From contig JACREQ010000069.1 of the NCBI GenBank assembly GCA_016218155.1, positions 95,311 to 159,310 on the forward strand: a stretch of 64,000 bases of DNA, in the 5' to 3' direction. Positions 11,025 to 47,500 of this stretch are shown piece by piece; the stretch's first letter is position 1; each line of letters starts with the position of its first letter. Source of the stretch: Bacteroidia bacterium. Lineage in GTDB: Bacteria > Bacteroidota > Bacteroidia > Bacteroidales > GWA2-32-17. The notes under the pieces were generated by a model that saw only the letters and a list, made by a program, of their open reading frames with translations, was not told the origin of the DNA and ran no database searches. The position numbers and the translations under genes were made by a program.

Positions 11025-14000
11025 ATGAAAAGAATAATTTTTGCAGTATTTCTGTTAATAACTGCTTCAGTTTCTTATTCTCAGTTAACAGTTACAACAG
11101 GTCTTTCTGCCCAACAATTAGCGAATATTCTTGCTGGGTATAATATTCAGGTAACAAATGCCTCTATTAGCGGAAATTCTTTACAAAAAGGAGCTTTTCA
11201 ATATACCGGAACTAATCTGGGAGTTAATTCAGGGGTAATTTTATCAAGTGGTAATGTTATGCAGGCTATTGGTCCAAATAATTCTTCTAGTGGTGCTTCT
11301 ACAGGATTTAACGGTGCTGGAAATCCTTTATTAACAAATCTTGCAGGTTACCAAACATATGATGCTGTTGTATTTCAATTCGATTTTCAGGTACAATCTG
11401 ACCAGATTGAGTTTAAATACATCTTTTTATCTGAAGAGTATAATGAATATGTTGGTATGGGTTATAATGATGTATTTGCTTTTTTTATTAGCGGACCAGG
11501 AATTACAGGTGAAGAAAATTTAGCCGTTGTACCGGGAACAACTTCACCGGTTTCAATAAATTCAATAAATACAGCTAACTACTGGCAGTTTTATCATAAT
11601 AACGAACCGCCAAATACAAACATTCAATATGATGGTTTTACAACTTTAATGACTGCAAAGAAAACAGGACTAATACCTTGTCAAACCTATAGACTAAAAT
11701 TAATGATTGCTGATGGAAGTGATGAAGTTTTAGATACCGGAGTATTACTGCAGGAAAATTCACTTGTTCAGGCTAATGTTTCAGCTACTGCAAATACATT
11801 CAGTGATAATAATACTGCACTTGAAGGTTGTGTTCAGGCAAATTTCACATTTCAGCTTGATAGTGCAATGACGCAAAATACTAGTATTCCGATTGGAATA
11901 GGAGGCTCTGCATTAAACGGAGTTGACTATTCACATGTAGATACGTTAATTGTTATTCCTGCAGGACAAACTTCTGCAACAATAATTATTGATGCCATTG
12001 CAGACGGTATTACAGAAGGTAACGAAACTATTGAAATTTATTACAGTACAGGACCATGTATGCAAAAAGACACAGTGACTTTATTTATAAACGATTATAA
12101 CCTGATTGAATTTACAACTTCTTCTGTAAACAGTTTATGTAACGGATCATCAAATGGCTCTGTAAATATTAATGTTACTGGAGGAATACCACCTTACTAC
12201 GTAACATTAACAGATAGTACAACCGGTATTTCAAGCCAGTATACAACAGTGCCAATAACAGGGTTAAATGCAGCTACTTATTATGTTAATGTTATGGATG
12301 GTTATGGTTGCGTAGCCGAAGATATTGTAAACGGTGCAATGTTTGAAGGTGGAGCGGTTTTTTTACCAGATGGGAATGGCTTTTCTTATTCTACATCGCT
12401 TAACTTATCAGGTTTTGCTCCCGGACAAACATTAACAGATATCAATCAACTTCAATCAATTTGCATTAATATGGAACACTCTTTTATGGGAGATTTGCAA
12501 ATTGTTTTACAGGCTCCTAACGGGACACAAGTAGAATTAAAACATCAGCCAGGAGGTTCTAAGACTAATTTAGGTGAACCAGTAGCTACCGGATCTAATG
12601 ACACACACAGTTGGGATACGACGCCAGGTGTAGGATATGATTATTGCTTTAACCAAAATCCAACTTATGGAACAATGGTTTCTGAAGCTAATAATTATCA
12701 ATACACATATATTACAACTCAGGGAATTTCTCAAACGGATAGTTACCTTCCCGCAGGATCTTATCAATCGCAACAGCCTTTAACAAATTTAATTGGTGTT
12801 CCCTTAAATGGAGCATGGACATTGATTGTTACAGACGAAATTCCTAATAACAACGGTTATGTATTTAACTGGAGTATTAGCTTAACAGCTGAACCACCTG
12901 ATTCTGTTGTTACAGTTTCACAACCATCTCAGCCAACAGTTACAAGTACAAACACCCTTCCTGGTTGCGGAATGAATAATGGTGCTATTAACATTACAGT
13001 AACAGGATCATCAACACCTTATACATACCAATGGAGTAACGGACCTACTACACAAGACATTTCAGGAGTACCTTCCGGAACTTATATTGTAACAATAACT
13101 GGTGCAGACAATTGTTCATATATCAGAACTTATAACTTATCTAATAACGGTACTCTTGCATTAAATGGAACAACTTTACCATCAACATGCACTGGAAGCA
13201 ATAATGGTAGTATAAATCTGACAGTATCTGGAGGTACTTTACCATTTAACTACATTTGGAATAACAGTGCTATTACCGAAGACATTACAGGATTAGCTCC
13301 AGCTAATTATACTGTTACTGTTACAGACTTTAATGGATGCAACGGAATAAAAGAATTTACAATTAACCAGTTGGCTCCAATAGATATTTCAACAAATATA
13401 ACAAATGAAAATTGTGGAGATCATGAAGGAATAATTAACCTTTCATTAACAGGTGGTTCAGGAATATATACTTACAATTGGTCAAATAATGCAACAACCG
13501 AAGATATAACAGACCTTGTACAAGGTAATTATGCTGTTACTGTTACAGATTCGAACAACTGTACTTCATCAGGCAATTTTACAGTAACAAACTATGTTGG
13601 CAATTGCATTCCAAATTGTGATATTAATATAACTAATGCCATAGTTAACAATGAAACATGCGGTAACTCAGCTGGATCAATAAACTTAACAGTGTTCACA
13701 AGTTTTTCACCTTTCACAGTTCAGTGGTCAAATACTTCAACCAATGAAGATATTTATATGTTACACGGTGGAAATTACACAGTAACTATTACCGATGCAG
13801 AATCTTGTCAGATAATAAATACTTATAATATTTTAAATCAAACAGGAACACTTAATGTTTCGGGAGTCTCTGTAACAAATGAAACATGCGGAAATAATAA
13901 CGGAGCAATAAATATTACAGTAACCGGAGGAGCACTACCAAATACTTATTTATGGTCTAATGGAAGCACCTCACAAAACTTAGTGGGAGTTCATGCAGGG

Positions 14001-17000
14001 CATTACTACGTAACAGTTACAGATGCTAATGGTTGTGCAGTATTTGCAGATGCAATAATTAACAATACAACCGGAACTTTAGTTCAAACATTTGGGAACG
14101 TTGTTAATGAAGTTTGTGGAAATCATAATGGCTCAATCGATATTCAAATATCTGGCGGAAGCGGTTCTCTAACCTATTCATGGTCAAACGGAATGTTTTC
14201 ACAAGACCTTATAAATATTGGCGCAGGAACATATTCCTGCACTATTACAGATGCAAATAATTGCAAATTATTCACACCTGCTTATACAGTCCAAAATGAA
14301 TCGGGAACAATGGTATTAGGCTATACAGATATCGACGATGAGATTTGTAATAACAATTCAGGTTTAGTTAATATTACAGTAACAGGTGGAAACATCCCAT
14401 ATACTTATCATTGGTCTAATAATGCAACAACTCAGGATTTAACAAATATTGATGCTGGATCATATTCATGTACTATAACCGATAATCTTGGTTGTGCTTT
14501 ACATACTCCGGTTTATACTGTTATAAATTCTCCCGGAACATTACAATTATCAAATGTTTCAACTATTGATGAATTGTGTAGCAATAACGGTGGTAGTATT
14601 AATCTTACTCTGGCTGGTGGCACAAGTCCCTTAACATACATTTGGAATAATAGCGTTGCATCAGAGGATCTTATTAATATTTCAGCAGGAAATTACTCTT
14701 GTACAATTAGTGATGCTAACAATTGTCAGATTACAGTAAATTCTTCAATTAACAACTTGCAAGGAACATTAAATATTTCCAATTCAATTATTACAAATGA
14801 AAGCTGTGGAAATATCAATGGTCAAATTAACATTGTTACTGGTGGAGGAACAACTCCTTATACATACTTATGGAGTTCGGGACAAACAACTGAAGATTTA
14901 TCAAACATAAGTAGTGGAAACTACATTGTAACAATTAACGATGCACAGGGTTGCAGTATTTCTCATGCTTATACAGTAAACAATATTGCAGGAACGCTGG
15001 CATTAGGAAATACTGTAATTACAAATGAAATTTGCTCAGGCATTAATGGTTCTGTTAATATTTCAGTTACAGGAACTCAAACTCCTTTCAGTTACCTCTG
15101 GAGCAACAGCTCAATTACACAAGATATCTCAGGAATAATTGCAGGTACTTATACATGTACAATTACAGACAACTTAGGTTGCAAAATAATTGCCGGACCT
15201 TATATTGTAAACAACACAGCCCCAGGAATGACCGTAACAACAAACTCAATTAGTTATGAAAATTGCGGAAACGGAACAGGAGCAATAGATATAAGTGTTT
15301 CAGGAGGGATATCTCCTTACACATACATATGGAGCAATTCATCATCAACACAGGATATTTCCGGAGTACATTCAGGAACATACACAGTAACAATTACAGA
15401 CATAAATAACTGTAAAACAATTAAGACTTTTACAATCAATAACAATTCAGGCACACTTAATATTTCGGGAGCAATAATAAATAACGAAACATGTTCAAAC
15501 GGATTAGGAACAATTAATATTACTGTTGCCGGGGGAGGTTCTCCATATACTTACCTTTGGAGTAACGGAGCTACAACTCAGAACTTATCGGGATTACATG
15601 ATGGTATTTATAAAGTTACAATTACCGATGCTTTAACTTGCTCTATTGTGTCAACTAATTATACTGTAAGTAATAGTCCAGGAACGTTTACAATTTCAAA
15701 TACTATTATAACAAATGAAATTTGTAATAACAATAATGGAAGTATTAATATAAGTATATCCGGAGCAACAATGCCTGTTTCATATATCTGGAGTAATAGT
15801 GCAATAACACAAGATATTTCAGGATTAAATTCTGGAAACTACTCCTGTACAGCAACTGATAATAATGGGTGTGAATTAGTAATTTACGAGACAGTTGGAA
15901 ATGATGCCGGAACTTTAACTTTAAACAATTCTATAGTTTCTTATGCTTCTTGTAATGCAGGAAATGGTTTTATTGATATTACAATTGCAGGTGGTACTTT
16001 ACCATATACTTTTTTATGGAGTAATGGAGCATTAACTGAAGATATATCGAATTTAAACAGTGGTACATATACCTGTTTAATTACAGACGCAGCAGGTTGT
16101 ACAATTTCTCACTCAGAAACTTTAAATACTATTGGTAATGCATTGTTAATTACAAATCCAACTATTGTTCATGAACAATGTTCACATAACGATGGGTCTA
16201 TTAATATTTCAGTTTCAGGTGGGGTGGCCCCATATACGTATATCTGGAATAACAGTCAAACTACGCAGGATATTTATAATTTATCTGCAGCTACTTATTC
16301 TGTTACTATAACAGATGTTAATAATTGTACAGTTTCAGGAATTTATAATATTTTAAACAGTAACAGTCTTTCATTTTCTAATGTTTATGTTTATAACGAT
16401 ATCTGCGGAAATAACCAGGGATATATTGAAGTCAGTATATATGGAGGAACATTCCCATATACTTATCTATGGAGTAATAATTCTACATTAGAGGACTTGT
16501 ATTATATTTCCGGCGGAACATACACTATAACAGTAACAGATGGAGTTGGATGTACACTTACTCACACATCAATTGTTAATAATAATACAAACGGATTAGC
16601 AGTTACTAATGCTGTTGTTTCAAATGATTCATGTGGATTAAATAATGGCTCAATAAATCTGACAATTAATGGAGGCACAGGTCCTTACACATACTCATGG
16701 AGTAATAATGAAATATCAGAAGATATTTCTGGTCTTTCTGGTGGAAATTATTCATGTACAATTATGGATAATACCGGCTGTAAGGTATTCTATTCTGCAA
16801 ATATTTTAAATGTAACAAATGGACTTTTAATACAAAACGCTACAATAACAAATGACACATGTAATAGTTATTTAGGTGCTGTAAACATTACTCTTACAGG
16901 GGGAAATATGCCATATCAGTATTTATGGAACAATGGTTCAGTTAATGAAGATTTAAATAATGTAACATCAGGCAATTATATTTTAACAATTACCGATAAT

Positions 17001-18443
17001 AGTGGATGTGCAATTGAATCAAGCTTTCTTGTAAATAATATTTCCAATTCTTCTTTAGGTTTTCAAAACATTTCAATATTTAATGACTATTGCGGAAACA
17101 GTCAAGGAAGCATCACATTTGACCCAGCAGGTACAGGCACTTACACATTTGAACTTAATGGTCATCAGGGAGGACAACCTATTCACGAATTTAATAATCT
17201 TATTGCTGGAAATTATTTACTCGCAATCTGGGAAGGTTCGTGTTATTATGACACAATTGTAACAGTTGGAAATAGCGGAAATTTCTCATCATCAGTAGGC
17301 TTCTATGGAAGTGAATATTGTGGTAATGGTGGCGGTTATATCGACATTAATGTTTTTCCACCGGATAATTATTCTTTTATTTGGAGTAACAATGTGTACA
17401 CAGAAGATAATTTTAATTTAAGTGCAGGAACATATTATTGTACAATTACCGACCAGACAGGCTGTCATAATTACCTTTCTGCAACTATTAATAATGCTGC
17501 AACATTTAATGTTACTACATCTGTTATTAATGAGGTGTGCGGAAATACGAACGGAAGCATAAATTTAACATTAACCGGAAATTATTTAGGTTCTACATTT
17601 ATCTGGAGTAATGGTAGTAATACTCAAAATATTTCCAATATTTCATCAGGTATTTATAATTGTACAATTACAAATTTAAATAACTGCACAGTTACAATTA
17701 GTGCAACAGTGAATAATGCAACCGGAAGTTTTGGGGTTAACTCACAGGTTAATGACGATTTTTGCGGAGAAGGGCAGGGGATGATTGCTTTAAGTACTAT
17801 TGGTGATCCTGGTCCTTATTCTTATATATGGAATACAAGTGAAACTAACGATACGTTATATAATATTCATTCAGGCACTTATTTAGTAACAGTTACTAAT
17901 ATTCCTACAGGATGTAATTATTATAATAGCTTTAATGTTGGAAATTCCGCATTGTTTTCTTTATCAGATGTCATTAATCCATCAAATTGTTTTACTTGTA
18001 ATACCGGTTCTATAGATATTACAACAATAGGCTCCAGCCCAACTTACACATATCTTTGGGGTAATGGAGCAACAAGTGAAGATTTAAATAATTTATTACC
18101 CGGAACTTATTATTTAACAGCTACTGACAATTGGGGATGTATTGTTATAGATTCCTTTGAAGTTGGTTTTTATAACATTATATACGAAGATTTTAATATC
18201 GATTACTTCAATGTATATCCTAATCCATCAAATGGAGTGTTTTATATTGATTATGATTTTGATAAAATGAATGGAAATACAATTGAAATATATGACCTTA
18301 CCGGCAAACTTGCTTTATCTCAAAAACTGATAGAATCAAAAGGGCATATTAAAATTGATCTTCAACAATATCCTAAAGGATTATATTTAATAAGAAAGAT
18401 TAATGGAAATAAGGTATTTAATTATAAAATATCTGTTAATTAA
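11025..18443 (+). CDS. Giant surface adhesin: choice-of-anchor-L domain, Calx-beta, P-domain and 24 SprB repeats; T9SS type-A cargo
   Basis: 2472 aa with a signal peptide. N-terminal choice-of-anchor-L signature: YDAVVFQFDF...FKYIFLSEEYNEYV...NDVFAFFISGPG. Calx-beta: GGSALNGVDYSHVDTLIVIPAGQTSATIIIDAIADGITEGNETIEIYY. P-domain: CINMEHSFMGDLQIVLQAPNGTQVELK...GAWTLIVTDEIPNNNGYVFNWSISL. The repeats have the form C.N.NGSINxTVxGGxxPYTYxWSNxxTTQDxSGLxxGxYxVTxTDxxGC. C-terminal tail: VYPNPSNGVFYIDY...GLYLIRK. Confidence 0.9.
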   Translation: MKRIIFAVFLLITASVSYSQLTVTTGLSAQQLANILAGYNIQVTNASISGNSLQKGAFQYTGTNLGVNSGVILSSGNVMQAIGPNNSSSGASTGFNGAGNPLLTNLAGYQTYDAVVFQFDFQVQSDQIEFKYIFLSEEYNEYVGMGYNDVFAFFISGPGITGEENLAVVPGTTSPVSINSINTANYWQFYHNNEPPNTNIQYDGFTTLMTAKKTGLIPCQTYRLKLMIADGSDEVLDTGVLLQENSLVQANVSATANTFSDNNTALEGCVQANFTFQLDSAMTQNTSIPIGIGGSALNGVDYSHVDTLIVIPAGQTSATIIIDAIADGITEGNETIEIYYSTGPCMQKDTVTLFINDYNLIEFTTSSVNSLCNGSSNGSVNINVTGGIPPYYVTLTDSTTGISSQYTTVPITGLNAATYYVNVMDGYGCVAEDIVNGAMFEGGAVFLPDGNGFSYSTSLNLSGFAPGQTLTDINQLQSICINMEHSFMGDLQIVLQAPNGTQVELKHQPGGSKTNLGEPVATGSNDTHSWDTTPGVGYDYCFNQNPTYGTMVSEANNYQYTYITTQGISQTDSYLPAGSYQSQQPLTNLIGVPLNGAWTLIVTDEIPNNNGYVFNWSISLTAEPPDSVVTVSQPSQPTVTSTNTLPGCGMNNGAINITVTGSSTPYTYQWSNGPTTQDISGVPSGTYIVTITGADNCSYIRTYNLSNNGTLALNGTTLPSTCTGSNNGSINLTVSGGTLPFNYIWNNSAITEDITGLAPANYTVTVTDFNGCNGIKEFTINQLAPIDISTNITNENCGDHEGIINLSLTGGSGIYTYNWSNNATTEDITDLVQGNYAVTVTDSNNCTSSGNFTVTNYVGNCIPNCDINITNAIVNNETCGNSAGSINLTVFTSFSPFTVQWSNTSTNEDIYMLHGGNYTVTITDAESCQIINTYNILNQTGTLNVSGVSVTNETCGNNNGAINITVTGGALPNTYLWSNGSTSQNLVGVHAGHYYVTVTDANGCAVFADAIINNTTGTLVQTFGNVVNEVCGNHNGSIDIQISGGSGSLTYSWSNGMFSQDLINIGAGTYSCTITDANNCKLFTPAYTVQNESGTMVLGYTDIDDEICNNNSGLVNITVTGGNIPYTYHWSNNATTQDLTNIDAGSYSCTITDNLGCALHTPVYTVINSPGTLQLSNVSTIDELCSNNGGSINLTLAGGTSPLTYIWNNSVASEDLINISAGNYSCTISDANNCQITVNSSINNLQGTLNISNSIITNESCGNINGQINIVTGGGTTPYTYLWSSGQTTEDLSNISSGNYIVTINDAQGCSISHAYTVNNIAGTLALGNTVITNEICSGINGSVNISVTGTQTPFSYLWSNSSITQDISGIIAGTYTCTITDNLGCKIIAGPYIVNNTAPGMTVTTNSISYENCGNGTGAIDISVSGGISPYTYIWSNSSSTQDISGVHSGTYTVTITDINNCKTIKTFTINNNSGTLNISGAIINNETCSNGLGTINITVAGGGSPYTYLWSNGATTQNLSGLHDGIYKVTITDALTCSIVSTNYTVSNSPGTFTISNTIITNEICNNNNGSINISISGATMPVSYIWSNSAITQDISGLNSGNYSCTATDNNGCELVIYETVGNDAGTLTLNNSIVSYASCNAGNGFIDITIAGGTLPYTFLWSNGALTEDISNLNSGTYTCLITDAAGCTISHSETLNTIGNALLITNPTIVHEQCSHNDGSINISVSGGVAPYTYIWNNSQTTQDIYNLSAATYSVTITDVNNCTVSGIYNILNSNSLSFSNVYVYNDICGNNQGYIEVSIYGGTFPYTYLWSNNSTLEDLYYISGGTYTITVTDGVGCTLTHTSIVNNNTNGLAVTNAVVSNDSCGLNNGSINLTINGGTGPYTYSWSNNEISEDISGLSGGNYSCTIMDNTGCKVFYSANILNVTNGLLIQNATITNDTCNSYLGAVNITLTGGNMPYQYLWNNGSVNEDLNNVTSGNYILTITDNSGCAIESSFLVNNISNSSLGFQNISIFNDYCGNSQGSITFDPAGTGTYTFELNGHQGGQPIHEFNNLIAGNYLLAIWEGSCYYDTIVTVGNSGNFSSSVGFYGSEYCGNGGGYIDINVFPPDNYSFIWSNNVYTEDNFNLSAGTYYCTITDQTGCHNYLSATINNAATFNVTTSVINEVCGNTNGSINLTLTGNYLGSTFIWSNGSNTQNISNISSGIYNCTITNLNNCTVTISATVNNATGSFGVNSQVNDDFCGEGQGMIALSTIGDPGPYSYIWNTSETNDTLYNIHSGTYLVTVTNIPTGCNYYNSFNVGNSALFSLSDVINPSNCFTCNTGSIDITTIGSSPTYTYLWGNGATSEDLNNLLPGTYYLTATDNWGCIVIDSFEVGFYNIIYEDFNIDYFNVYPNPSNGVFYIDYDFDKMNGNTIEIYDLTGKLALSQKLIESKGHIKIDLQQYPKGLYLIRKINGNKVFNYKISVN
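12950..18170 (+). repeat. Array of 23 consecutive diverged SprB-type coding repeats (about 75 codons each)
   Basis: I counted the W(S/N/G)N...TxTD..GC units in the translated ORF. A 24th unit lies upstream at about 12130-12325, before the P-domain. The units are diverged rather than identical, by eye roughly half the residues are shared. Confidence 0.8.
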
Positions 18444-19118: not shown

Positions 19119-19139
19119 AATTACGTTTTTTATAAATAC

Positions 19140-19172
19140 TTGTCATTCTGAACGAAGTGAAGAATCTATATT
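19140..19172. repeat. Short dispersed intergenic repeat, copy A (ttgtcattctgaacgaagtgaagaatctata)
   Basis: Related to copies at 20933-20970, 47548-47589 and 47615-47645. The shared core is GTCATyC.GA.C..AG.GA.GAATCT. Confidence 0.6.
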
Positions 19173-19317
19173 TTTGACAAATATATAGTTAGCTTTGCTA
19201 AGTTTGACTTTTAAGATGTCTAGTATTTGGATTATACTTAAATAACTAAGCTTTTATAAAGTTTGATTTATTAAAACTTAAAGTATCATTCATTTTTTAA
19301 AGTCTTCAGAAATAGAT

Positions 19318-20924: not shown

Positions 20925-20932
20925 TTTATTTT

Positions 20933-20970
20933 TTGTCATTCCGAGCATAGCGAGGAATCTGGTTCGAGAT
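20933..20970. repeat. Short dispersed intergenic repeat, copy B (ttgtcattccgagcatagcgaggaatctggttcgagat)
   Basis: About 31 of 38 positions match copy C. A partial inverted copy (ttctctcgctagcatc) lies at about 20997-21025. Confidence 0.6.
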
Positions 20971-24059: not shown

Positions 24060-25073
24060 ATGGCTGATAATTCGATTAAAAACCCAATTCAGTTAAAATT
24101 CTTTGAAAAACTTAAGCAATCGGTTTCTCAAAACATTTCTGTTGCCAATGAAATTGCAGATGTGCTTGAGATTAGTCAGGATGGGGCATACAGAAGAATG
24201 CGCGGAGAAAGTATTTTAAGTATGGACGAGATGATAAAACTATGCAAATACTTTAAAATATCTCCCGATGTTTCAACAATAGAGGACGAAACATCTGCTA
24301 CATTTCATTTTCAAAGAATGATTCACGATGAGAACGGTTATGAAGAATATCTTAAAAATATACTTAGCGATCTTCAAAAGATAGATAATTCAAACCCAAA
24401 ACATATTATTTATGCAGCAGGAGATTTACCTATATTTATTCAGTTTATTTCTCCGGAATATTCTGCATTTAAAGCATTCTTCTGGCAAAAAGCAATGTTA
24501 AATATTCCATCAATGGATGGGAAAAAATACAGCAATAATAACATTAAACCAGAAATATCAGAATTATGCAAAAAAATATCTGATACTTACATTCGTATTC
24601 CCTCTACAGAGATATGGCATTTCGACACAATACACAGTAACATAAAACTTATTGAATTTGCCTGGGAATCGGGAATGTTCTTAACAATTGAGGATGCATT
24701 AATTGTATGCGAACAACTTTCTGACATGCTTTTGCTTATTGAAAAACAAGCAGAAAAAAGTTCTAAATTCAGTAACGAAGAGCGTTGGTCTTTAAATGAA
24801 GGAAACTTTACATTATATCAGAGTGATTTTGTGCTAACAAATAATCATATATTTGTTTCTGCCGGAAACACAAAAACTCTTTATCTTACACACAATACTT
24901 TTAACTCTATTTTAACAACAAACACAGTATTTTGCAACGAAACCGAAGAATGGCTTAAAAACCTTATCAGAAAATCGACTCAGATAAGCGGGGTAGGAGA
25001 AAAGCAACGCCATAAGTTTTTTAAAAATGCTCAGGAAAAAATTGAGAACCTTGTTATGAAGATAAAAGAGTAA
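24060..25073 (+). CDS. Putative HTH transcriptional regulator of unknown family
   Basis: 337 aa. The N-terminus ISVANEIADVLEISQDGAYRRMRGESILSMDEMIKLCKYFKISPD looks like an XRE-type helix-turn-helix. The C-terminal 250 aa are not recognisable to me. Confidence 0.55.
   Translation: MADNSIKNPIQLKFFEKLKQSVSQNISVANEIADVLEISQDGAYRRMRGESILSMDEMIKLCKYFKISPDVSTIEDETSATFHFQRMIHDENGYEEYLKNILSDLQKIDNSNPKHIIYAAGDLPIFIQFISPEYSAFKAFFWQKAMLNIPSMDGKKYSNNNIKPEISELCKKISDTYIRIPSTEIWHFDTIHSNIKLIEFAWESGMFLTIEDALIVCEQLSDMLLLIEKQAEKSSKFSNEERWSLNEGNFTLYQSDFVLTNNHIFVSAGNTKTLYLTHNTFNSILTTNTVFCNETEEWLKNLIRKSTQISGVGEKQRHKFFKNAQEKIENLVMKIKE
25037..25073 (+). repeat. Direct repeat copy 1, the true 3' end of the regulator gene
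   Basis: aaaaattgagaaccttgttatgaagataaaagagtaa. 34 of 37 positions match 29716-29752, and the last 24 bp are identical. Confidence 0.9.
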
Positions 25074-25131
25074 CGGTTGTATTTTCATACAGATTTTCCG
25101 ATTGATTTAATATTGTGTTAGTTGTAGGCAA

Positions 25132-26007
25132 TTAATATTTTTCTGGTAGTTGTAATTTTTTAATTTTTGCATCTATACTTAGTTTAGATAATCCCAATTC
25201 CGCACGTCTTATGTCCACCTCTTTTATGTTTTCAATTGGCACATAATCGGAAATTGTTCTAAAGGTTCCATATGTTTGAAAACCATTCATTGCATAATTG
25301 TACCTGTCCAAAACAATCGCATAATCACTAAAAGAAATATTTCCTTTTAAAGCTTCAGAATATAAAAGGGGTTTAAAAAATGATTCCCAATAATGTTTTG
25401 TTGATGTGTTAGTTGTAGAATGCATTATTAAAATAATAATATCTTGATTATAACCAAGCGTTTTAAATCCTGGATATCCTTGTTCATTAATAAGTTCCAT
25501 TACATTTATTGTATTAATAGAATCTATTTCTGCCATATATTTATACTTACAGGCATCTTCATTTCTGTTACGAATAAATTGATCAACTTCAATCCATGCA
25601 TTAATTTTCGCAAAAGTAGGAAAATCTATTTCTGATTTTACTGATTTAAGATTCTCCCATAATTTGGATTTTTTTGCAAATTCAAAAATTGAATCATTTG
25701 TTTTATCTTCTAAAATTTCATCCAATTTAAAATCATATTTGATCATGTCAGATATTATCCGTAATGTCATTACAGTATCCTTTTTAGAGGCGAAAGCTTT
25801 TGCTGCATCTAGATTATCAAAAGGAAAAAGTTTCCCGAAAGTTGAAAATATTTGATTATAAATAATAATAGCTGAGTCTGTATTATTCTCAGATAAAAAG
25901 TATTCTACTTTACTAGACAAAACAGAATATTGCTTATAATCTTGAGCAAATGTATTTACTGAAACTGAACAAATCAGAAACAAAATCAGGTTTTTAATAT
26001 TTTTCAT
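25132..26007 (-). CDS. Hypothetical secreted protein
   Basis: The track ORF (25132..26160) reads through the upstream repeat element. The signal peptide MKNIKNLILFLICSVSVNTFAQ begins at the ATG at 26007. An alternative ATG is at 26031. Confidence 0.55.
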   Translation of the reverse strand: MKNIKNLILFLICSVSVNTFAQDYKQYSVLSSKVEYFLSENNTDSAIIIYNQIFSTFGKLFPFDNLDAAKAFASKKDTVMTLRIISDMIKYDFKLDEILEDKTNDSIFEFAKKSKLWENLKSVKSEIDFPTFAKINAWIEVDQFIRNRNEDACKYKYMAEIDSINTINVMELINEQGYPGFKTLGYNQDIIILIMHSTTNTSTKHYWESFFKPLLYSEALKGNISFSDYAIVLDRYNYAMNGFQTYGTFRTISDYVPIENIKEVDIRRAELGLSKLSIDAKIKKLQLPEKY

Positions 26008-26012
26008 AATAA

Positions 26013-26195
26013 TTTTATTTGTTAAAGTCATTTTGTATTGCTTACAGCTAAAGGTTTGCGGTTGAATTTGGCAGGCTTTTATTTGCAGTTGTGCTTGCCC
26101 CTTCGGGGTCAAACCGCTAAGAATATTATTTATTGTTATATTTGTCAAGTTGCACTTCACTGCTCGTTGTTTTCGTAGGTGGTGTTACTGATTGT
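26013..26195. repeat. About 180-bp structure-prone intergenic repeat, copy 1
   Basis: Core: ggtttgcggttgaatttggcaggcttttatttgcagttgtgcttgccccttcggggtcaaaccgctaag...attgttatatttgtcaagttgcac. It aligns with 26884-27072, differing by a few substitutions and indels in the core. Confidence 0.8.
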
Positions 26196-26214
26196 TTATT
26201 TATTTTTAAGAGAG

Positions 26215-26853
26215 CTATTTTCCTTTTTGTTTGTCATCAACACAATAGTATCTAAGAATTTTCCCATTCATGTCAATGAATACATAAATTTCCATATTTG
26301 ATATGTCTTTAATGCAAAAATCAACTAATACAATTGCAAATTCATTATTGTTAATGAAATAAGGAGAGGTAGCATAGATCATACCTGCATTTTCTTTTGC
26401 ATAGCGATAACCATTAAATGAAAATATTTGTTTTTGCTTATTATTCAATTTAATCCTAGTATTTCTGCAATGATCATAAATGAAGCTACATTTTGCATTT
26501 TTTCTTAAGTATCTTGATAATTTTCCAGCATTTTTATAACTTGTAGAATCATAAGGATATATTTTGTGGAATTCATCAGTCAGATTTGAAATTTCTTTAT
26601 TACACTGAATTTGAGTTTGCCTTATTAAAGTCGAATCTGATTTTGAAAAAATAAATTGTAATTCCCAATCCCAGAAAATATTTGCAGATTGAGAGCAACT
26701 AATTATTAGGATTTTTGAATCTGATGAGGGTCGCTTTAAAAAAGACTCTTCAGAGTCAACAACAAACTTTAATGCGATTTTCTCAAAATTAAGTTTTTGG
26801 CAAAAAGTATGTAGTGACAAGAATAAGATGGGAACTAATAATAATTGTTTCAT
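26215..26853 (-). CDS. Hypothetical secreted protein
   Basis: 212 aa with signal peptide MKQLLLVPILFLSLHTFCQ. I see no recognisable domain. Confidence 0.5.
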   Translation of the reverse strand: MKQLLLVPILFLSLHTFCQKLNFEKIALKFVVDSEESFLKRPSSDSKILIISCSQSANIFWDWELQFIFSKSDSTLIRQTQIQCNKEISNLTDEFHKIYPYDSTSYKNAGKLSRYLRKNAKCSFIYDHCRNTRIKLNNKQKQIFSFNGYRYAKENAGMIYATSPYFINNNEFAIVLVDFCIKDISNMEIYVFIDMNGKILRYYCVDDKQKGK

Positions 26854-26883
26854 ATTCTTTATCTTATATTTGTTAATAAATCC

Positions 26884-27072
26884 TTAAAGTCATACTTGTA
26901 ATTGTTTTTTATAAATAAGCGGTAACGGTTTGCTGTTGAATTTGGCAGGCTTTTACTTGCAGTTGTGCTTGCCCCTTCGGTGTCAAACCGCTAAATATTA
27001 TACATATTGTTATATTTGTCAAGTTGCACCACCCACCCAGTTTTTGCCAAACGTGTGTTACCAGCTGGCCTA
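26884..27072. repeat. About 180-bp structure-prone intergenic repeat, copy 2
   Basis: It shares ttaaagtcat, ggtttgc.gttgaatttggcaggctttta.ttgcagttgtgcttgccccttcgg.gtcaaaccgctaa and attgttatatttgtcaagttgcac with copy 1. The ends GGTAAC...GTTACC form a short inverted pair. Confidence 0.8.
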
Positions 27073-27082
27073 CTTTTCATAA

Positions 27083-28312
27083 TTAAAATTTTCGTACTGC
27101 TCGAACACGATAATTGATATCTTTATCACCTACATAACCTGATCCCATATCTATATTAATGCTACAACAATTATTAAATCTTTCTGTTGAACTCATATAC
27201 CATGCATCGTTTGGTATTGGCAACCCTGTTGAATAATTATCACCATCATTCTCTAGTATAAATGTAATATGAAAAGCATTAACTAATAATTGTCTTAATT
27301 CAAAAACTGATGGTAGATACCAATCAGAAAAACCTCCAAATATATACTGTGTACATAATAATGCACCACTATTTGTATGACCTGCTTGTGATATTATTGC
27401 TTGTGTATTTGATTGACCATCCCAAGTACTTTCAGCTGTTGATCCAATTGAAACATTAATAATGTTGCTCCATGGCATACCTGCACTTAAATCTGCAAGG
27501 CTTGCAATTAAACCATGTTGACGAGAATGGTCAACCCAAAATACAATACCACCTCCAAATAATTCGCCAACATAATGACCGCTTAATGAATTAGCAACCT
27601 GTGCCGTGTCATTTGTTTGGGGATTGATTAAATTGTACGCATAATTAGCGGTGTCGGAATAAATAGAAGTTGTAGCTGTTTGAGAATTAAATGCGAATGA
27701 TGAAGAATCAGAAAAATTAGAAGTTGCAGCAGTTTGGGCAAAATTTGCAGTCAAAGCAGTAGTAGCAGTATTAGCTGTTGCTGCCGATTGTGCATTATAC
27801 GCAAATGTTGCAGTGTCTGCATAGTTAGCATGATTTGAAGAATATGAGAACACTGCAGTGTCAGACTGTAATGAATGAAATGCATAAGGAACAGCCAACA
27901 TTTGTTGAATACCGACTAATTTATATTCACTATTACCTTTTATATCAATTTCTACTTTTAAAAAGTGTTTATAACTACCCCAATCAATATTTAAGAGACT
28001 TGTGTCAGGACTTAAACCAGTTAAAACACCGTGTCCAATAACAACGGTAAATAATCCATTCTGATCTGTGTTTGCTGTATGTGTTTCTTGATAAACGAGT
28101 ATTCCTGACACTTCTTCCTGTAAAATTGTAAACCGGATATTTATGATTTTGTCTGATAAAATATTTCCATTTACATCCATTCCGGCAATTTCTTTTCCAT
28201 TTTCGTCAATAGCAACAGCCTGATATGTTATGCCATCAACAACCTGTGCTTTAACAGTATTTATTGAAAATATTGTTACTGTAAAAACAATATACATATA
28301 TAACTTTTTCAT
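27083..28312 (-). CDS. Secreted fibre-like protein with a C-terminal DUF1566 (Lcl C-terminal-like) domain
   Basis: 409 aa with a signal peptide. The N-terminus GITYQAVAIDENGKEI...VYQETHTANTDQNGLFTVVIGHG resembles the N-termini of Bacteroidota tail-fibre-like proteins, from memory. The centre carries A/T/S/N-rich pseudo-repeats (ADTATFAYN, SDSSSFAFN, SDTANYAYN). The C-terminus GGIVFWVD...GFSDWYLPSVFELRQL is DUF1566-like. Confidence 0.65.
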   Translation of the reverse strand: MKKLYMYIVFTVTIFSINTVKAQVVDGITYQAVAIDENGKEIAGMDVNGNILSDKIINIRFTILQEEVSGILVYQETHTANTDQNGLFTVVIGHGVLTGLSPDTSLLNIDWGSYKHFLKVEIDIKGNSEYKLVGIQQMLAVPYAFHSLQSDTAVFSYSSNHANYADTATFAYNAQSAATANTATTALTANFAQTAATSNFSDSSSFAFNSQTATTSIYSDTANYAYNLINPQTNDTAQVANSLSGHYVGELFGGGIVFWVDHSRQHGLIASLADLSAGMPWSNIINVSIGSTAESTWDGQSNTQAIISQAGHTNSGALLCTQYIFGGFSDWYLPSVFELRQLLVNAFHITFILENDGDNYSTGLPIPNDAWYMSSTERFNNCCSINIDMGSGYVGDKDINYRVRAVRKF

Positions 28313-39036: not shown

Positions 39037-39132
39037 TTATAAAATTGGGAATTATAACTATATTTTTTTATTCTGTTTACTAATAATTAATAACTTTACG
39101 AGTCGAAAATTTCGACAAAATTATATTTATTG

Positions 39133-39243
39133 TAGTCTCCGAGTTAAGTTTTCTAAGGATGAAAGTCTATGAAAATTAACCATTGGGTCAATGGAAACAA
39201 ACAGCCCACCCGAGGTTTAAAACCCAAATTGGAAAGGAGAAAG
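39133..39243 (+). promoter_or_regulatory. Molybdenum cofactor (Moco) riboswitch aptamer
   Basis: Conserved blocks as I recall the Moco RNA motif: 5' gTCTCCGAG, internal hairpin ccattg-ggt-caatgg, and 3' CAGCCCACCCGAGG...GGAAAGGAGA. TCTCC (39136-40) pairs with GGAGA (39236-40) as P1. The context is right, directly upstream of Moco genes. Confidence 0.75.
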
Positions 39244-39267
39244 TCATTAAAAAATATTTAATGATTG

Positions 39268-39306: not shown

Positions 39307-40473
39307 ATGGCAAATGTTTTATTTTTTTTTAAGTCTCGCATCAGGTTCGACCGAAATGAGTTTTCGGGAGCTTTTGGTGATATTGGCACCGATTTACCTT
39401 TAATAATTGGTATGATACTGGCTTCTGGATTAGATAGTGCCAGTGTTTTAATAACATACGGGATTATGCAATTGCTAACTGCAATGCTTTACGGAATTCC
39501 AATGCCGGTTCAACCATTAAAAGCAGTTGCAATGATTGTAATTACACAAAAAATTGCTCCCGAAGTTATTTATGGTGGCGGTTTAGCAATTGGTGTATTA
39601 ATGTTAGTTCTATCACTAACAGGTCTTGTTGATTTAATTGCAAAATATATTCCTAAGGTTGTGGTGCGTGGAATTCAGTTTGGGCTTGGAATTCAACTTT
39701 CTATGGTTGCATTAAAAGAATATGTTGTAGCAGATTCTTTTTCGGGATATTGGCTTGCAGGAATTGCATTTATTATTACAATAATTTTATTAGGAAACAG
39801 AAAATATCCTCCGGCCATTTTTATTATTATTGCAGGCGTTGCTTATGCCTTAATTTTTAAATTCACAAACTTTAATTTTGTAAATGCAATTAGCTTTTCA
39901 ATACCAAAATTGTATACACCGAGCTGGACAGACATCTTAACCGGGTTTTTAATACTGGCACTTCCACAGATTCCTCTTTCTATTGGAAATTCAATTATTG
40001 CAACAAAACAAATGGCAACTGATTATTTTCCAGAGAAAAAAATAACAGTAAAAAAAATCAGTCTTACTTATTCAATAATAAATATTATTAATCCATTTTT
40101 AGGCGGTGTTCCTACATGTCATGGTTCGGGTGGCATGGCCGGACATTACGCATTTGGTGCAAGAACCGGAGGATCTGTATTTATTTATGGCATATTGTTT
40201 TTAATCTTAGGTTTTTTCTTTAGCGGTAGTTTTGAGCAAATTGTTAAGATATTCCCTTTACCAGTATTAGGCGTAATTCTTTTATTTGAGGGATTAACAT
40301 TAATGATTTTTATAAAAGATATTATTGATTCTAAAAAGAGTTTCTTTATAGCATTACTGGTTGCCTTAATTGCATGTGGCTTACCATATGGTTATTTAAT
40401 TGGAATGATAGTAGGAACAATTATGTATTATATCTCTGACAAAAAAATCAAAAACTATTTTAAAATTAAATGA
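39307..40473 (+). CDS. MOT-family (MFS_MOT1-like) putative molybdate transporter
   Basis: About 388 aa and polytopic. EFSGAFGDIGTDLPLIIGM resembles the ELSGAVGDLGT(Y/F)IPIV signature of plant MOT1/MOT2, as I recall it. The gene sits under the Moco riboswitch. I prefer the ATG at 39307 to the TTG at 39301. Confidence 0.7.
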   Translation: MANVLFFFKSRIRFDRNEFSGAFGDIGTDLPLIIGMILASGLDSASVLITYGIMQLLTAMLYGIPMPVQPLKAVAMIVITQKIAPEVIYGGGLAIGVLMLVLSLTGLVDLIAKYIPKVVVRGIQFGLGIQLSMVALKEYVVADSFSGYWLAGIAFIITIILLGNRKYPPAIFIIIAGVAYALIFKFTNFNFVNAISFSIPKLYTPSWTDILTGFLILALPQIPLSIGNSIIATKQMATDYFPEKKITVKKISLTYSIINIINPFLGGVPTCHGSGGMAGHYAFGARTGGSVFIYGILFLILGFFFSGSFEQIVKIFPLPVLGVILLFEGLTLMIFIKDIIDSKKSFFIALLVALIACGLPYGYLIGMIVGTIMYYISDKKIKNYFKIK

Positions 40474-42716: not shown

Positions 42717-42848
42717 AACTTAAATAATTAGAATTTAATTACATGAACATAATTATATGATATTATATAATTAACAACAAAGATATTAAAAATGCTATTA
42801 ACAAATAGGTTAAAATTAATTAATTTTGAAAATATTTTATTTCTGAAA

Positions 42849-44024
42849 ATGATACTATTTGAAGATGCATTAAGAACTGTATTAGAAAAAGCTAAATGTG
42901 CTGATAAGGAGAAAGTTAAGTTATTGGATTCAACTAACCGATTTCTTGCTCAAAATATAATTGCCGATATAGATATGCCACCTTTTGATAAATCGGCAGT
43001 TGATGGTTATGCTTGTAAAATTGACGACATTCATAATAATCTTGAAGTTTTGGAAACAATTGCTGCCGGAGATGTTCCAAAAAATAACATTAAGCAGAAT
43101 CAATGTTCAAAAATAATGACAGGCGCAATGTTACCCGAAGGTGCAGATTGTGTATTAATGGTTGAACACACTCAGAAAATAGACGAGACTCACATAAAAT
43201 TAACTACAGAAAAAACAGGGATTAATATTGCATACAAGGCTGAAGATATTAAAAAAGATACAGTTTTATTAAAAGAGGGTTTACTTATACAACCGCAACA
43301 TATTGCACTAATAGCTTCTGTTGGATATTCTGAATTATTAGTTTACAAACAACCAAGAGTTGCTGTATTAACTACTGGAAGCGAACTTGTTGAACCTGAC
43401 ACTAAACCTGCATTAGGTCAAATAAGAAACAGCAATGCATGGCAGATATATTCTCAGGTTCAGAAAATAAATGCTATTCCTGTTTATTTTGGAATAATTG
43501 AAGATACTGAAGAAAAAACTGATTTGGCAATAAAAAAAGCCATTTCTGAAAATGATGTTGTAATATTAACCGGCGGAGTATCAATGGGCGACTTTGATTT
43601 TGTGCCTAAAATACTTAAACAAAATAATGTAGATTTAATTTTCGAAAAAATAAAAATCAGACCTGGAAAACCTACTGTATTTGGTGTGCATAAAGATGCA
43701 TTTGTTTTTGGTTTACCAGGTAATCCTGTATCATCATTTGTACTTTTTGAAATATTAGTTAAGCCATTTTTACAAAAAATGATGGGTTCAAATGAAGTAC
43801 AAAAAAATATTTATTTGACATTAGGTACTGACTTTAAAAGAGCAAAAGCCGATGTTATGTTATGGGTGCCATCAAAAATTAACGAAAAAGGAGAAGTCGT
43901 TCCAGTTGAATACCACCGCTCAGCCCATGTTTCATCTCTATGCAATGCCGATGTGCTTTTCCCGGTAAGTATTGGTGTATTTGAATTAAAGAAAGGGGAT
44001 ATAGTAAATGTTAGACAGATATAA
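42849..44024 (+). CDS. moeA: Molybdopterin molybdenumtransferase
   Basis: MILFEDALRTV..., PPFDKSAVDGYA, IMTGAMLPEGADCV, LTGGVSMGDFDF and GLPGNPVSSF are MoeA motifs. I moved the start from 42792 to the ATG at 42849. Confidence 0.9.
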   Translation: MILFEDALRTVLEKAKCADKEKVKLLDSTNRFLAQNIIADIDMPPFDKSAVDGYACKIDDIHNNLEVLETIAAGDVPKNNIKQNQCSKIMTGAMLPEGADCVLMVEHTQKIDETHIKLTTEKTGINIAYKAEDIKKDTVLLKEGLLIQPQHIALIASVGYSELLVYKQPRVAVLTTGSELVEPDTKPALGQIRNSNAWQIYSQVQKINAIPVYFGIIEDTEEKTDLAIKKAISENDVVILTGGVSMGDFDFVPKILKQNNVDLIFEKIKIRPGKPTVFGVHKDAFVFGLPGNPVSSFVLFEILVKPFLQKMMGSNEVQKNIYLTLGTDFKRAKADVMLWVPSKINEKGEVVPVEYHRSAHVSSLCNADVLFPVSIGVFELKKGDIVNVRQI

Positions 44025-44808
44025 CAGAGACATACATTATTTAAGGATTTCTGTTACCGATCGTTGCAATCTGCGATGCAAATATTGTATGCCTGAAGAC
44101 GGTGTAAAGCTTATTGACCATAAGGATATATTATCATTTGAGGAAATTTATGAGTTTACTAAAATTGCTGTAAAAAATGGCATAAATAAAGTAAGAATTA
44201 CAGGTGGTGAGCCTCTTGTAAGAAAAAATATTTTAGAACTTATAAAATTATTATCACAAATTAAGGAGCTTAATGATTTATCTCTAACAACAAACGCAAT
44301 ATTATTAAAAGATTTTGCAAAACCATTATCTGAAGCAGGTTTAAAAAGGGTAAATATTAGTCTCGACACTTTAAATCCTGAAAAATTCAAAGAAATTACA
44401 AGAGGTGGTGATATTAATAAAGTAATTGAAGGTATTGAAGCTGCAATTAATGCAGGTCTAAGACCTATTAAAATAAATTGTGTTGTTAATAAATCCCAGA
44501 ATGAACCAGATGCATTACAAGTAAAAAAGTTTTGCGAAAAACACGGTTTAATGGTTCGGTTTATTCATCAAATGAATTTAGAAACAGGTGAATTTTCTGT
44601 TGTAGAAGGTGGAACGGGAGGCGATTGTAATAATTGTAACAAATTGCGATTATCAAGTGATGGTTATTTAAGACCATGTTTGTTTAATGACATTGCATAT
44701 AATGTTAGAGAATTGGGCGCCGAAAAAGCCATAGAAATGGCTATAGGAAATAAACCCAAATGTGGCACCTACAGTTTATCTAATAAATTCAATGCAATTG
44801 GAGGATAA
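44008..44808 (+). CDS. moaA: GTP 3',8-cyclase (radical SAM), short form
   Basis: 266 aa. It has the LRISVTDRCNLRCKYCMPE cluster, RITGGEPL, a second cluster CNNCNKLRLSSDGYLRPCLF, and a terminal GG. It overlaps moeA by 17 bp. Confidence 0.85.
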   Translation: MLDRYNRDIHYLRISVTDRCNLRCKYCMPEDGVKLIDHKDILSFEEIYEFTKIAVKNGINKVRITGGEPLVRKNILELIKLLSQIKELNDLSLTTNAILLKDFAKPLSEAGLKRVNISLDTLNPEKFKEITRGGDINKVIEGIEAAINAGLRPIKINCVVNKSQNEPDALQVKKFCEKHGLMVRFIHQMNLETGEFSVVEGGTGGDCNNCNKLRLSSDGYLRPCLFNDIAYNVRELGAEKAIEMAIGNKPKCGTYSLSNKFNAIGG

Positions 44809-46104: not shown

Positions 46105-46142
46105 TAGATTGGTTTATATTTTTGTTATAGGCTATAAATAAA

Positions 46143-47009
46143 ATGAAAAAACTTTCACTCTTTACTGTATTAATTTGTTTGACGGGTTTGGTCAATGCAC
46201 AATTCATTATTTCTGGACAACATAGTATAAATGATTACCATTACCAATTTGTACCTGATAGTATAGTAATTAACATCCCCCAAAACCCACCGAATTATAA
46301 TCCGCAATTTTATTTGATTGATATAAATAATGATGGAATCATGGACTTCCAATTTGCACTTCGTCCTCCTACTACAGCTTTAGGTATGAATTCGGATTAT
46401 TGTACTTTAAGCGGTCTTAATAACAATAATGTTGCTTTAGGTTATTTCGATACTTGTTATACAAATACTGGCGTATATGTAAATAGGTTTGGAATAGCTC
46501 ATGAATTTAATTACAATTACTCTATAAATTCAAATGCAAATTGGGATAGTTTAGTTTACTTGAATTATTATACTGTGTATACAGGAAGTTACGGTTGTGG
46601 ATGCCCAAATTGCTCATTCACCGCTTACATTGGTGTACGTGTACAAGTAGCTTCTTCTTATAAATATGGCTGGATTAAGATTGCTGGCCTTACATTTAAT
46701 CCATGGGGCAATACAACTTTAACAATGGGGGAATTTGCTTGTGAAAATATTGGTAATGGTGTAAATATGCATACAAATAACAGAGAACTGAAATCAGTTT
46801 ATCCAAACCCTGCAAATGATAAATTGACTATTGAGTCCCTGCAAAAATCAATCATATTAATTTCAGACATGCAAGGACAAGTAATTTTAGAACAAAATTT
46901 AAAGCAAGGAATAACTGATATTAATATAAGTGGACTTTCAAAAGGAATTTACATTTTAAAACAAGTTGGAAATAATAAAACCGAGGTGACAAGAATTATT
47001 AAAGAGTAA
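46143..47009 (+). CDS. Hypothetical secreted protein; T9SS type-A cargo
   Basis: 288 aa with a signal peptide. C-terminal tail: VYPNPANDKLTIES...GIYILKQ. Confidence 0.7.
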   Translation: MKKLSLFTVLICLTGLVNAQFIISGQHSINDYHYQFVPDSIVINIPQNPPNYNPQFYLIDINNDGIMDFQFALRPPTTALGMNSDYCTLSGLNNNNVALGYFDTCYTNTGVYVNRFGIAHEFNYNYSINSNANWDSLVYLNYYTVYTGSYGCGCPNCSFTAYIGVRVQVASSYKYGWIKIAGLTFNPWGNTTLTMGEFACENIGNGVNMHTNNRELKSVYPNPANDKLTIESLQKSIILISDMQGQVILEQNLKQGITDINISGLSKGIYILKQVGNNKTEVTRIIKE

Positions 47010-47020: not shown

Positions 47021-47075
47021 TATAACACCACCTACGAATACAACGTGCAGCAATGTGCAACTTGACAACTTTAAC
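47021..47075. repeat. Partial inverted copy (copy 3) of the 26-27 kb intergenic repeat
   Basis: cctataacaccacctacgaatacaacgtgcagcaatgtgcaacttgacaa is the reverse complement, with a few mismatches, of ttgtcaagttgcacttcactgctcgttgttttcgtaggtggtgttac at 26143-26189. Confidence 0.7.
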
Positions 47076-47083
47076 ATTAAATA

Positions 47084-47500
47084 CTATTCTCCAATAATTT
47101 TCACCAATAATCTTTTTCTACGCTTTCCGTCAAATTCTCCGTAAAAAATTTGTTCCCAAGGACCAAAGTCTAGTTTACCATTTGTTATAGCTACAACAAC
47201 TTCGCGACCCATAATTGTACGTTTTAAATGAGCATCTGCATTGTCCTCAAAACCATTGTGTTTGTATTGCGAATATGGCTTTTCGGGTGCAAGTTTTTCG
47301 AGCCACACTTCAAAATCATGATGTAAGCCAGATTCATCATCGTTTATAAAAACACTTGCAGTTATATGCATAGCATTTACCAGGCATAGTCCTTCTTTAA
47401 TACCACTATCAATCAAACACTGATTTACAAAAGGAGTTATATTAATTAACTCACGTCGGCTTTTAATATCGAACCAAAGTTCTTTACGGTAGGATTTCAT
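47084..47500 (-). CDS. yjbQ: YjbQ/UPF0047 family protein (secondary thiamine-phosphate synthase-like)
   Basis: 138 aa. [36 protein letters not shown]...[10 protein letters not shown] is the family signature. Confidence 0.85.

Follow-up and report, generated by a model that had tools for sequence, protein, structure and literature searches.

Integron-style capture of gene cassettes is thought to depend on one specialised clade of integrases, and the attC sites carried by cassettes may be long and uniform, as in the Vibrio cholerae repeats (VCRs), which measure ~125 nt and are highly alike within a lineage. IntegronFinder surveys have recorded almost no integrons in Bacteroidetes (PMC9024848). 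Group IIC-attC introns enter attC sites on their bottom strand, at R'', within TTGT/T and opposite to cassette transcription (PMC7923331, PMC3001079). Gut Bacteroidales possess another array, rAID, for recombinase-associated acquired interbacterial defence (Ross et al. 2019, bioRxiv 10.1101/471110). In rAID-1, as described (bioRxiv 10.1101/471110; PMC12247911), a XerD-family recombinase is followed by a same-strand array of short co-oriented genes, the intergenic repeats are 'reminiscent of integrons', and a conserved motif is found after the stop codon of the recombinase and before the first open reading frame (ORF). The cassettes of rAID-1 encode orphan immunity proteins, and its recombinase is homologous to BF9343_RS08045. 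These arrays protect against type VI secretion system (T6SS) toxins, and their mechanism of gene acquisition and their biogenesis were stated to be open in a 2025 paper (PMC12247911). Here we analyse a repeat found in a 64,000-nt stretch of the genome of a Bacteroidia bacterium (contig JACREQ010000069.1, positions 95,311 to 159,310; referred to below as the window), where its copies separate same-strand genes. These repeats are likely to be attC-like recombination sites that belong to an integron-like system for gene cassettes in Bacteroidota, present in the window as decayed remnants, and the system is probably of the rAID type.

Relatives of the repeat were collected by scanning one genome per species for exact patterns, which gave 7 loci in metagenome-assembled genomes (MAGs) of Bacteroidales and Bacteroidetes, and by a metagenome scan, which gave 66 loci (labels of the form L0xx denote related contigs). 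A profile hidden Markov model (HMM) recovered 123 copies and a covariance model (CM) 114 copies in 65 loci; the alignments A3 and A4 contain 84 and 65 copies, respectively. The first-pass annotation of the window had proposed a search for further copies, for covariation and for an Rfam family. Further copies are thus numerous and covariation is present (see below); in an Rfam scan of the window and 10 related loci, no family matched any copy of the element, the matches being to other features only (a molybdenum cofactor (Moco) riboswitch, a fluoride riboswitch and a group II intron). Copies are grouped in co-oriented arrays with as many as five members, 0.5-5.5 kb apart, and in every one of the 42 intervals that separate successive copies the main ORF runs opposite to the 'plus' (folding) strand of the element. 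The distance from a site to the stop codon of the upstream gene is mostly 1-30 nt, and that to the next start codon is 5-110 nt. Sorting tails of the type IX secretion system (T9SS) were found in 22 of 106 flanking proteins, the remainder including DNA methyltransferases, HNH, HEPN, PemK and DUF4160 proteins; no known immunity family was among the top matches in a Pfam census of the flanking genes.

Each site is bounded by TAAC and GTTA boxes, which are nearly invariant in 84 copies and among the most conserved positions, and the length from TAAC to GTTA is 122-139 nt (median 125). The left arm pairs with the right arm in a stem of ~15 bp, for which at least five arm sequence types exist (e.g. 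CTACGGAACGACGAGCA pairing with TGCTCGTTGTTTTCGTAG, TTGGAAAAGCTGGGCG with CGCCCAGTTTTTACCAA and TTGGATTTGGCGGGC with GCCCGCTAAATGCCAA). An asymmetric internal loop of ~9 x 6 nt lies inside, or above, the boxes, and nearly all copies have a single-nucleotide bulge on the gene-proximal arm (A4 column 120). The centre of ~70 nt is conserved in sequence across arm types and comprises GTCAAACCG[CT]TA, an AT-rich stretch and TTGTCAAGTTGCAC. Compensatory changes occur at 12 of the 15 stem pairs; 96% of the cells are paired, compared with 29-52% after the partner was slid by 1-3 columns, and the covariation score was reached by none of 500 shuffles. G·T pairs outnumber C·A pairs (127 vs 40), copies with matched arms are nearly free of C·A, and one G·T pair recurs in 60 of 65 copies, a bias indicating that the fold belongs to the strand antisense to the genes. 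Single-sequence folding of both strands was no better than that of shuffles, with z between -0.9 and +0.75 for most constructs, and a wider RYYY/RRRY flank consensus is weakly followed.

The sites resemble integron attC sites in their AAC/GTT end boxes, in the imperfect hairpin that forms antisense to the cassette gene, and in a length that falls within 57-141 nt. The internal loop, the bulge on the gene-proximal arm and the terminal part may correspond to the unpaired features of attC sites, including their extrahelical bases; the terminal part is conserved here and variable in attC sites. As in an attC hairpin, sequence varies while pairing is kept, a property of the family that the window copies themselves have lost (6-7 of 12 pairs). 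A classical 74-nt hairpin site is present in the same array as sites of this family in L019. The family also recalls the VCRs and other species-specific attC families of sedentary chromosomal integrons, being long (~125 nt) and highly similar within a lineage (cf. PMC13638679); unlike in the VCRs, the conserved part here is the centre, and the stem arms come in at least five interchangeable, covarying types.

The bases just outside the boxes connect neighbouring sites. In cassettes of the integron type, the crossover would lie in the distal box, and the bases beyond it would be part of the adjacent cassette. The 8 nt outside TAAC at the site on the start side of a gene were compared with the 8 nt outside GTTA at the site on the stop side of the same gene. 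The contiguous complementary run across a cassette had a mean of 5.13 and was at least 5 in 30 of 39 cassettes, compared with means of 0.98 for random pairs, 1.20 for the two ends of one site and 0.82 for reverse pairing. The rule is also valid between different site families and in the recombinase-headed arrays described below. In L017, L028 and L050, adjacent sites belong to different arm types, each with matched arms, and their outer bases pair across the gene, an arrangement that puts the point of exchange at the TAAC/GTTA box instead of the centre. A classical double-stranded-core crossover in the conserved centre was considered and rejected, because these three loci keep matched arms and only the outer bases pair across the cassette. 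Searches for the predicted partners beyond terminal sites were positive in 13 of 51 and 11 of 42 cases, with about one expected. On the 3' sides of cassettes they always led to further hairpin sites, which came from other sequence families (including the 74-nt site of L019), and bare ...TAA/C (G/TT) junctions beside ordinary DNA occurred on the 5' side only, e.g. at nadD in L004. This asymmetry of the two ends gives the polarity of a cassette as gene plus downstream site and shows that secondary-site insertion occurs. Duplicates of the same cassette in differing contexts were too few to show which site travels with the gene. In L024, which has five copies, four sites share an identical left flank (AAAAAATACTTTCATTTATTGTTTGAATTT) directly before the box, abutted by the same gene start, and the complementarity rule fails across its cassettes.

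In at least five loci, a group II intron, identified by a match to Rfam RF02001 (group-II-D1D4-3), interrupts the folding strand at GTGT^TA within the gene-proximal box. Its 5' junction was found in L066 and L036 and its 3' junction in L022, L065, L060 and L036. The target resembles that of group IIC-attC introns in the use of the bottom strand, in the TGT/T of the gene-proximal box, in the position after or into the hairpin and in the direction against the cassette genes (PMC3001079, PMC7923331), the intron itself being recognised here by one Rfam match, RF02001. The same intron recurs at the GT^TA box of several sites (L066 1277-1580, as well as L036, L022, L065 and L060), and contigs often end within it. 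Other mobile DNA was found exactly at TAA/C in L056 (position 8174 of the oriented contig), L070 (926), L007 (4231) and L048 (817). One of these insertions is a miniature inverted-repeat transposable element (MITE) with TAGTGTCTGTCCATAA inverted ends, and the other is an insertion sequence whose 347-aa ORF, to judge from its sequence, may encode a transposase of the IS1182/IS5 families. The TAA/C box thus seems to be an insertion hotspot.

In ~350 kb of flanks, a single tyrosine recombinase was found, a 5'-truncated fragment located just after the array in L019. Homologues of this fragment head co-oriented arrays in L074 (with AAA_21, HNH, HEPN and radical SAM genes), L078 (HTH and DNA methylase) and L080 (DUF4304 and others), and one lies inside another array in L075. 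In L074, L078, L079 and L080, a conserved junction, ...TATAAACTAG/TT or ...AAGCTAG/TT, is located ~100 nt past the stop codon of the recombinase gene and marks the start of the first cassette. The outer bases of this attI-like junction pair perfectly with the proximal box of the first site in L074, L078 and L080, examples being GTTACAGGT with ACCTGTAAC and GTTGTACACC with GGTGTACAAC, and the sites of L080 match the model of the window family (E = 1e-7). The array-heading recombinases gave sub-cut-off matches to the XerC, XerD and XerA models and to integron-integrase models; with TIGR02249 they scored 111-162 bits (cut-off 265), in two stretches that skip the IntI-specific insertion. The KxR hairpin and the HxLRH motif are separated by 55-59 aa in these proteins and by ~95 aa in IntI1. 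The loci lack the arrangement that defines an integron sensu stricto, namely an IntI with the additional domain beside attI and an array. ORFs of ~130-150 aa were considered as 'mini-integrases', and this idea was discarded; they are explained by deletions, by the ends of contigs, or by frameshifts in a long-read contig of low coverage. L075, from Bacteroidetes bacterium HGW-Bacteroidetes-5, also contains (2734-4728) a frameshifted IS91-family transposase with its own 305-aa tyrosine recombinase, divergent from the adjoining long co-oriented array, which also has a recombinase fragment inside it.

The likeness to rAID-1 is one of architecture, judged from the published descriptions. Within the same phylum, both systems have intergenic repeats, a conserved motif that follows the stop codon of the recombinase and precedes the first ORF, and a same-strand XerD-family recombinase at the head of a co-oriented array, the last being present in L074, L078 and L080 and absent from the window. 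Unlike rAID-1, the relatives in this collection were recovered from environmental MAGs and metagenomes, the cassettes they carry encode T9SS cargo, restriction-modification, HEPN, HNH and toxin-antitoxin proteins with no recognised T6SS immunity genes seen, and many of them stand in dispersed mini-arrays far from any recombinase. Hairpin sites, box exchange and an attI-like junction are not described in the cited rAID-1 papers (bioRxiv 10.1101/471110; PMC12247911). With integrons, the arrays share the organisation of one site per promoter-poor ORF in co-oriented arrays, the exchange of box-outer bases between neighbours, solitary cassettes at G/TT secondary sites and group II introns that target TGT/T. 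They differ from integrons in that the recombinase is XerD-like, lacks the IntI insertion and is located upstream of, and in the same orientation as, the cassettes instead of divergently, and in that many cassettes encode T9SS cargo.

In the proposed mechanism, a cassette consists of one gene (sometimes two or three) plus its ~125-nt site. The strand antisense to the gene would fold into a hairpin with a basal TAAC/GTTA box and 5-8 cassette-specific bases, followed by the internal loop, the bulged stem of ~15 bp and the ~70-nt centre. This folded single strand would be the recombination substrate, and a tyrosine recombinase, which we infer to be the XerD-like enzyme, would cut it at TAA/C. With the cut at this position, the outer bases would travel with the neighbouring cassette and pair with its far end on circularisation. 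In related loci, an array begins ~100 nt past the stop codon of the co-oriented XerD-like recombinase, at the attI-like junction, and single cassettes are also found at secondary ...G/TT... sites amid housekeeping genes.

Several observations weigh against this interpretation. Motif (regex) and phmmer searches found no recombinase in the window or within ~5 kb of ~70 loci. The link to the recombinase comprises five contexts reached from one fragment, in which several of the genes are truncated or frameshifted; because these genes are damaged (frameshifts, a deletion and contig ends), the link is suggestive and not proven. The ~70-nt centre, whose 14-mer is invariant between genomes and between site types, shows far stronger conservation than the terminal structure of classical attC sites, which is variable. 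Mismatched (hybrid) arms are found in ~19 of 84 copies, and a crossover at the basal box does not yield such copies, which may instead have arisen by homologous recombination through the conserved centre. When DNA energy parameters are used, both strands fold about equally well. Finally, the flanks contain T-runs and a weak TAnnnATTG motif, which could suit a small RNA gene.

The features of the window are listed in Table 1. A gap-free alignment of 125 nt (26031-26155 vs 26905-27029) gives 86% identity between copies 1 and 2, and an inverted partial copy (copy 3, 47009-47090) matches 26120-26201 at 82%. Copies 1, 2 and 3 were all recovered by an nhmmer profile (E = 4e-30, 5e-33 and 6e-13) and a covariance model (CM R1), both built from unrelated loci, which excludes chance similarity. 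The first-pass annotation was therefore right in describing a real repeat that separates same-strand cassettes, with an inverted partial copy ~20 kb away directly after a stop codon. It also placed the copies correctly relative to the genes, as the stop codons at 26215, 27083 and 47007 sit 13-27 nt from a GTTA/TAAC box, and noted the higher GC content of the element (0.41-0.43, compared with ~0.31 for the window). All genes flanking copies 1 and 2 are on the minus strand. A fourth site was absent from that annotation, as was the attC-type anatomy (TAAC/GTTA boxes and arm covariation), which becomes visible only when many copies are compared. The fourth site reads TAACGG...GTGTTA and represents either a copy that has lost internal sequence or a short variant. 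The TAA of its TAAC box (25071-25073) doubles as stop codon for a convergent HTH/BetR-like gene on the plus strand (24060-25073).

Table 1. Cassette genes, attC-like sites and associated sequence marks in the window
Feature	Coordinates	Strand	Remarks
Cassette gene 1	27083..28312	-	409 aa, signal peptide, weak Lcl_C domain
attC-like site, copy 2, after cassette gene 1	26923..27060	+	CM 71.2 bits, E = 1.2e-15
Cassette gene 2	26215..26853	-	212 aa, signal peptide, no Pfam family
attC-like site, copy 1, after cassette gene 2	26049..26187	+	CM 68.8 bits
Cassette gene 3	25132..26007	-	291 aa, signal peptide, weak DUF6624
Fourth, short (50-nt) attC-like site, after cassette gene 3	25071..25120	+	CM 17.3 bits, E = 0.058
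5' boundary of solitary cassette	46124..46133	+	GTTATAGGCT
Solitary cassette gene	46143..47009	+	288 aa, T9SS C-terminal sorting domain (Por_Secre_tail, E = 1e-13)
Half copy (copy 3), after solitary cassette gene	47023..47090	-	nhmmer E = 6e-13; CM 24.3 bits
14-nt insertion TTGTGCTTGCCCCT	26089..26102, also 26963-26976	+	Unique to window copies 1 and 2 among 84 aligned copies
Invariant 14-mer TTGTCAAGTTGCAC of conserved centre	26142..26155, 27016-27029, reverse-complemented 47055-47068	+	

In both full-length window copies, the left arm is of the E type and the right arm of the A or B type. In copy 2, the boxes are intact (TAAC 26923-26926, GTTA 27057-27060; the folding or 'bottom' strand is the plus strand), and the stem retains 6 of 12 pairs because its arms are of two different types. 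Copy 1 retains GTTA (26184-26187), its left box has been mutated to TAAA (26049-26052), and its mismatched arms form 7 of 12 stem pairs. What remains of copy 3 is the box next to the gene, the right arm and the right-hand portion of the conserved centre, the distal half being gone; its nhmmer match spans model positions 86-156, with TAAC beginning at 47023 on the plus strand and the end at ~47090. The window sites are probably fossils and would be inactive, judging from the mismatched arms, the change of one AAC to AAA, the 50-nt length of one site and the halving of another. The decay proposed in the first-pass annotation is thus borne out.

Traces of cassette organisation persist. Cassette 2 is bounded by ATAAGCGG directly before TAAC (26915-26922) and CTGATTGT directly after GTTA (26188-26195), and five of the six innermost positions pair. 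GTTGTAGG, which follows the GTTA of the short site (25121-25128), pairs at 8 of 8 positions, including two G·T, with CTTACAGC, which precedes the TAAA of copy 1 (26041-26048), indicating that the array holds three cassettes. A partner for CCAGCTGG was sought as the 5' boundary of cassette 1, and none was found. For the solitary cassette, GTTATAGGCT is a perfect 10-nt reverse complement of AGCCTATAAC (47017-47026), and its position is regarded as a secondary-site insertion junction because the upstream side carries no element. On balance, the window appears to contain a decayed three-cassette array (25071-28312) and one solitary cassette with T9SS cargo (46124-47090). It encodes no tyrosine recombinase detectable by regex and phmmer searches, an exact-protein look-up of a window cassette protein returned no record, and searches of plasmid and phage collections gave no match.

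The structure initially proposed for the window copies, in which GGCAGG pairs with CTTGCC beneath a cUUCGg loop, is not a conserved fold. It derives from the private 14-nt insertion, which is positioned where the left-arm type changes to the centre/right-arm type; the conserved helix of the family joins the left and right arms and is broken in both window copies. The associated strand assignment, antisense to the genes, agrees with the G·T bias of the family; the UUCG loop cited for it comes from that insertion. A promoter role for the TTGACA is not supported: the hexamer sits inside the invariant 14-mer, and no conserved -10 box accompanies it. A sigma-70 promoter of the form TTGACA-N17-TATTCT was accordingly rejected, its -10 box not being conserved in other copies, and matches to a Bacteroidota-type promoter on either strand were weak and mis-spaced. 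The conserved ATGACTTTAA is indeed present in the leaders of both downstream cassette genes (26021-26030 and 26887-26896), where it starts a mini-ORF (MTL...), but lies outside the site. Copies 1 and 2 have near-identical left halves, including ~30 nt of flank and the private insertion, and the sharing of ATGACTTTAA, the left arm and the insertion suggests that one left half was copied from the other.

Among the alternatives, the one that accounts best for the data, and which we nevertheless consider rather unlikely, is that the repeats are classical attC sites, occurring as attC clusters that lack an integron-integrase (CALIN) and as single attC sites without one (SALIN), with a canonical IntI elsewhere in the genome and the XerD-like genes as bystanders (IS91-associated or cargo). 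The site-level features of attC appear to be present, and the intron target is identical to that of IIC-attC introns (PMC7923331). Bacteroidota integrons are on record (PMC8618304), most CALINs do not lie near intI, and IntI inserts at genomic GWT sites (bioRxiv 10.1101/2022.09.11.507474); in addition, the related tyrosine recombinase of L075 belongs to an IS91 element. However, no IntI was found in 412 kb of flanks, the XerD-like gene in L074, L078 and L080 stands precisely at the array head, its stop codon preceding the first cassette boundary by ~100 nt, and the IntegronFinder surveys cited above found almost no Bacteroidetes integrons (PMC9024848).

The strong covariation, with G·U pairs confined to one strand, would also be compatible with a small structured RNA gene or antisense regulator transcribed opposite to the flanking genes, from near TAAC to a downstream T-run. 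The conserved upstream flank (TTTTTTTAnnnATTGnnGn) and a T-run 12-18 nt past GTTA are in keeping with such a gene, which we nonetheless judge very improbable. It accounts neither for the pairing of outside bases across the neighbouring gene nor for the bare G/TT junctions, copies with broken stems are common, and there is no Rfam match. The upstream motif also misfits the Bacteroidota -7 box, TAnnTTTG.

The first-pass annotation preferred a decaying MITE or cassette-junction element to a conserved RNA. The cassette junction has held up, whereas the MITE, i.e. a MITE/REP-like non-autonomous transposable element with terminal inverted repeats scattered intergenically, is even less probable than an RNA gene. 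Its multi-copy, dispersed nature and the TAAC/GTTA inverted ends, together with the decay of the window copies, would fit a MITE, but the orientation relative to the flanking genes is fixed (42/42), the position is directly behind a stop codon, there are no target-site duplications, and no associated transposase was found. Furthermore, complementarity between outer bases is at chance level within an element and instead runs across genes. A functionless local segmental duplication of the intergenic region, to which the near-identical left halves of copies 1 and 2 with their private insertion might point, is refuted by the occurrence of the family in dozens of unrelated contigs and MAGs, and the right arms of the two window copies are of different family types.

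Some other features of the window and related contigs were also observed. A Moco riboswitch (39125-39255, plus strand; 47.6 bits, gathering score 36) is located upstream of an ORF at 39307-40473, a few kb before moeA/moaA-like genes (42792-44808). A giant ORF of 2472 aa (11025-18443, plus strand) contains ~30 tandem units of ~228 nt (76 aa) and is the source of most direct-repeat families of the window (D1-D12). A second dispersed repeat of 38 nt, TTGTCATTCCGAGCATAGCGAGGAATCTGGTTCG, with self-complementary ATTCC...GGAAT, occurs at 19136-19173, 20929-20966 and 47544-47581, just beyond gene ends, and has no relation to the attC-like family. In the cassette-bearing contig L023, a fluoride riboswitch (582-641, plus strand; 62.3 bits) immediately precedes an ORF (644-1273) that follows an attC-like site (385-534).

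If the repeats are attC-like cassette sites, the genes at 25132-28312 and 46143-47009 would be horizontally acquired cassettes with decayed recombination sites. A more far-reaching possibility, which we advance tentatively, is that the family represents a second, independent integron-type lineage in which a plain XerD-like enzyme without the IntI domain recombines attC-like hairpins and an adjacent attI-like site. If so, it would provide the mechanism behind rAID-type arrays, as well as for the chromosome-wide scattering of T9SS-cargo and defence cassettes, and the 70-nt centre with its 14-mer would be a new functional module, e.g. a site for an accessory protein or a further point of crossover, which might account for the swapped arms. 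The sites offer a concrete model for rAID-like arrays, comprising bottom-strand hairpins, crossover at TAA/C, an attI-like junction and secondary G/TT insertion. Cassette recombination through folded DNA may have originated, or been maintained, with an ordinary XerD-like enzyme, and the cassettes may serve the exchange of secreted T9SS proteins and defence genes among Bacteroidota.

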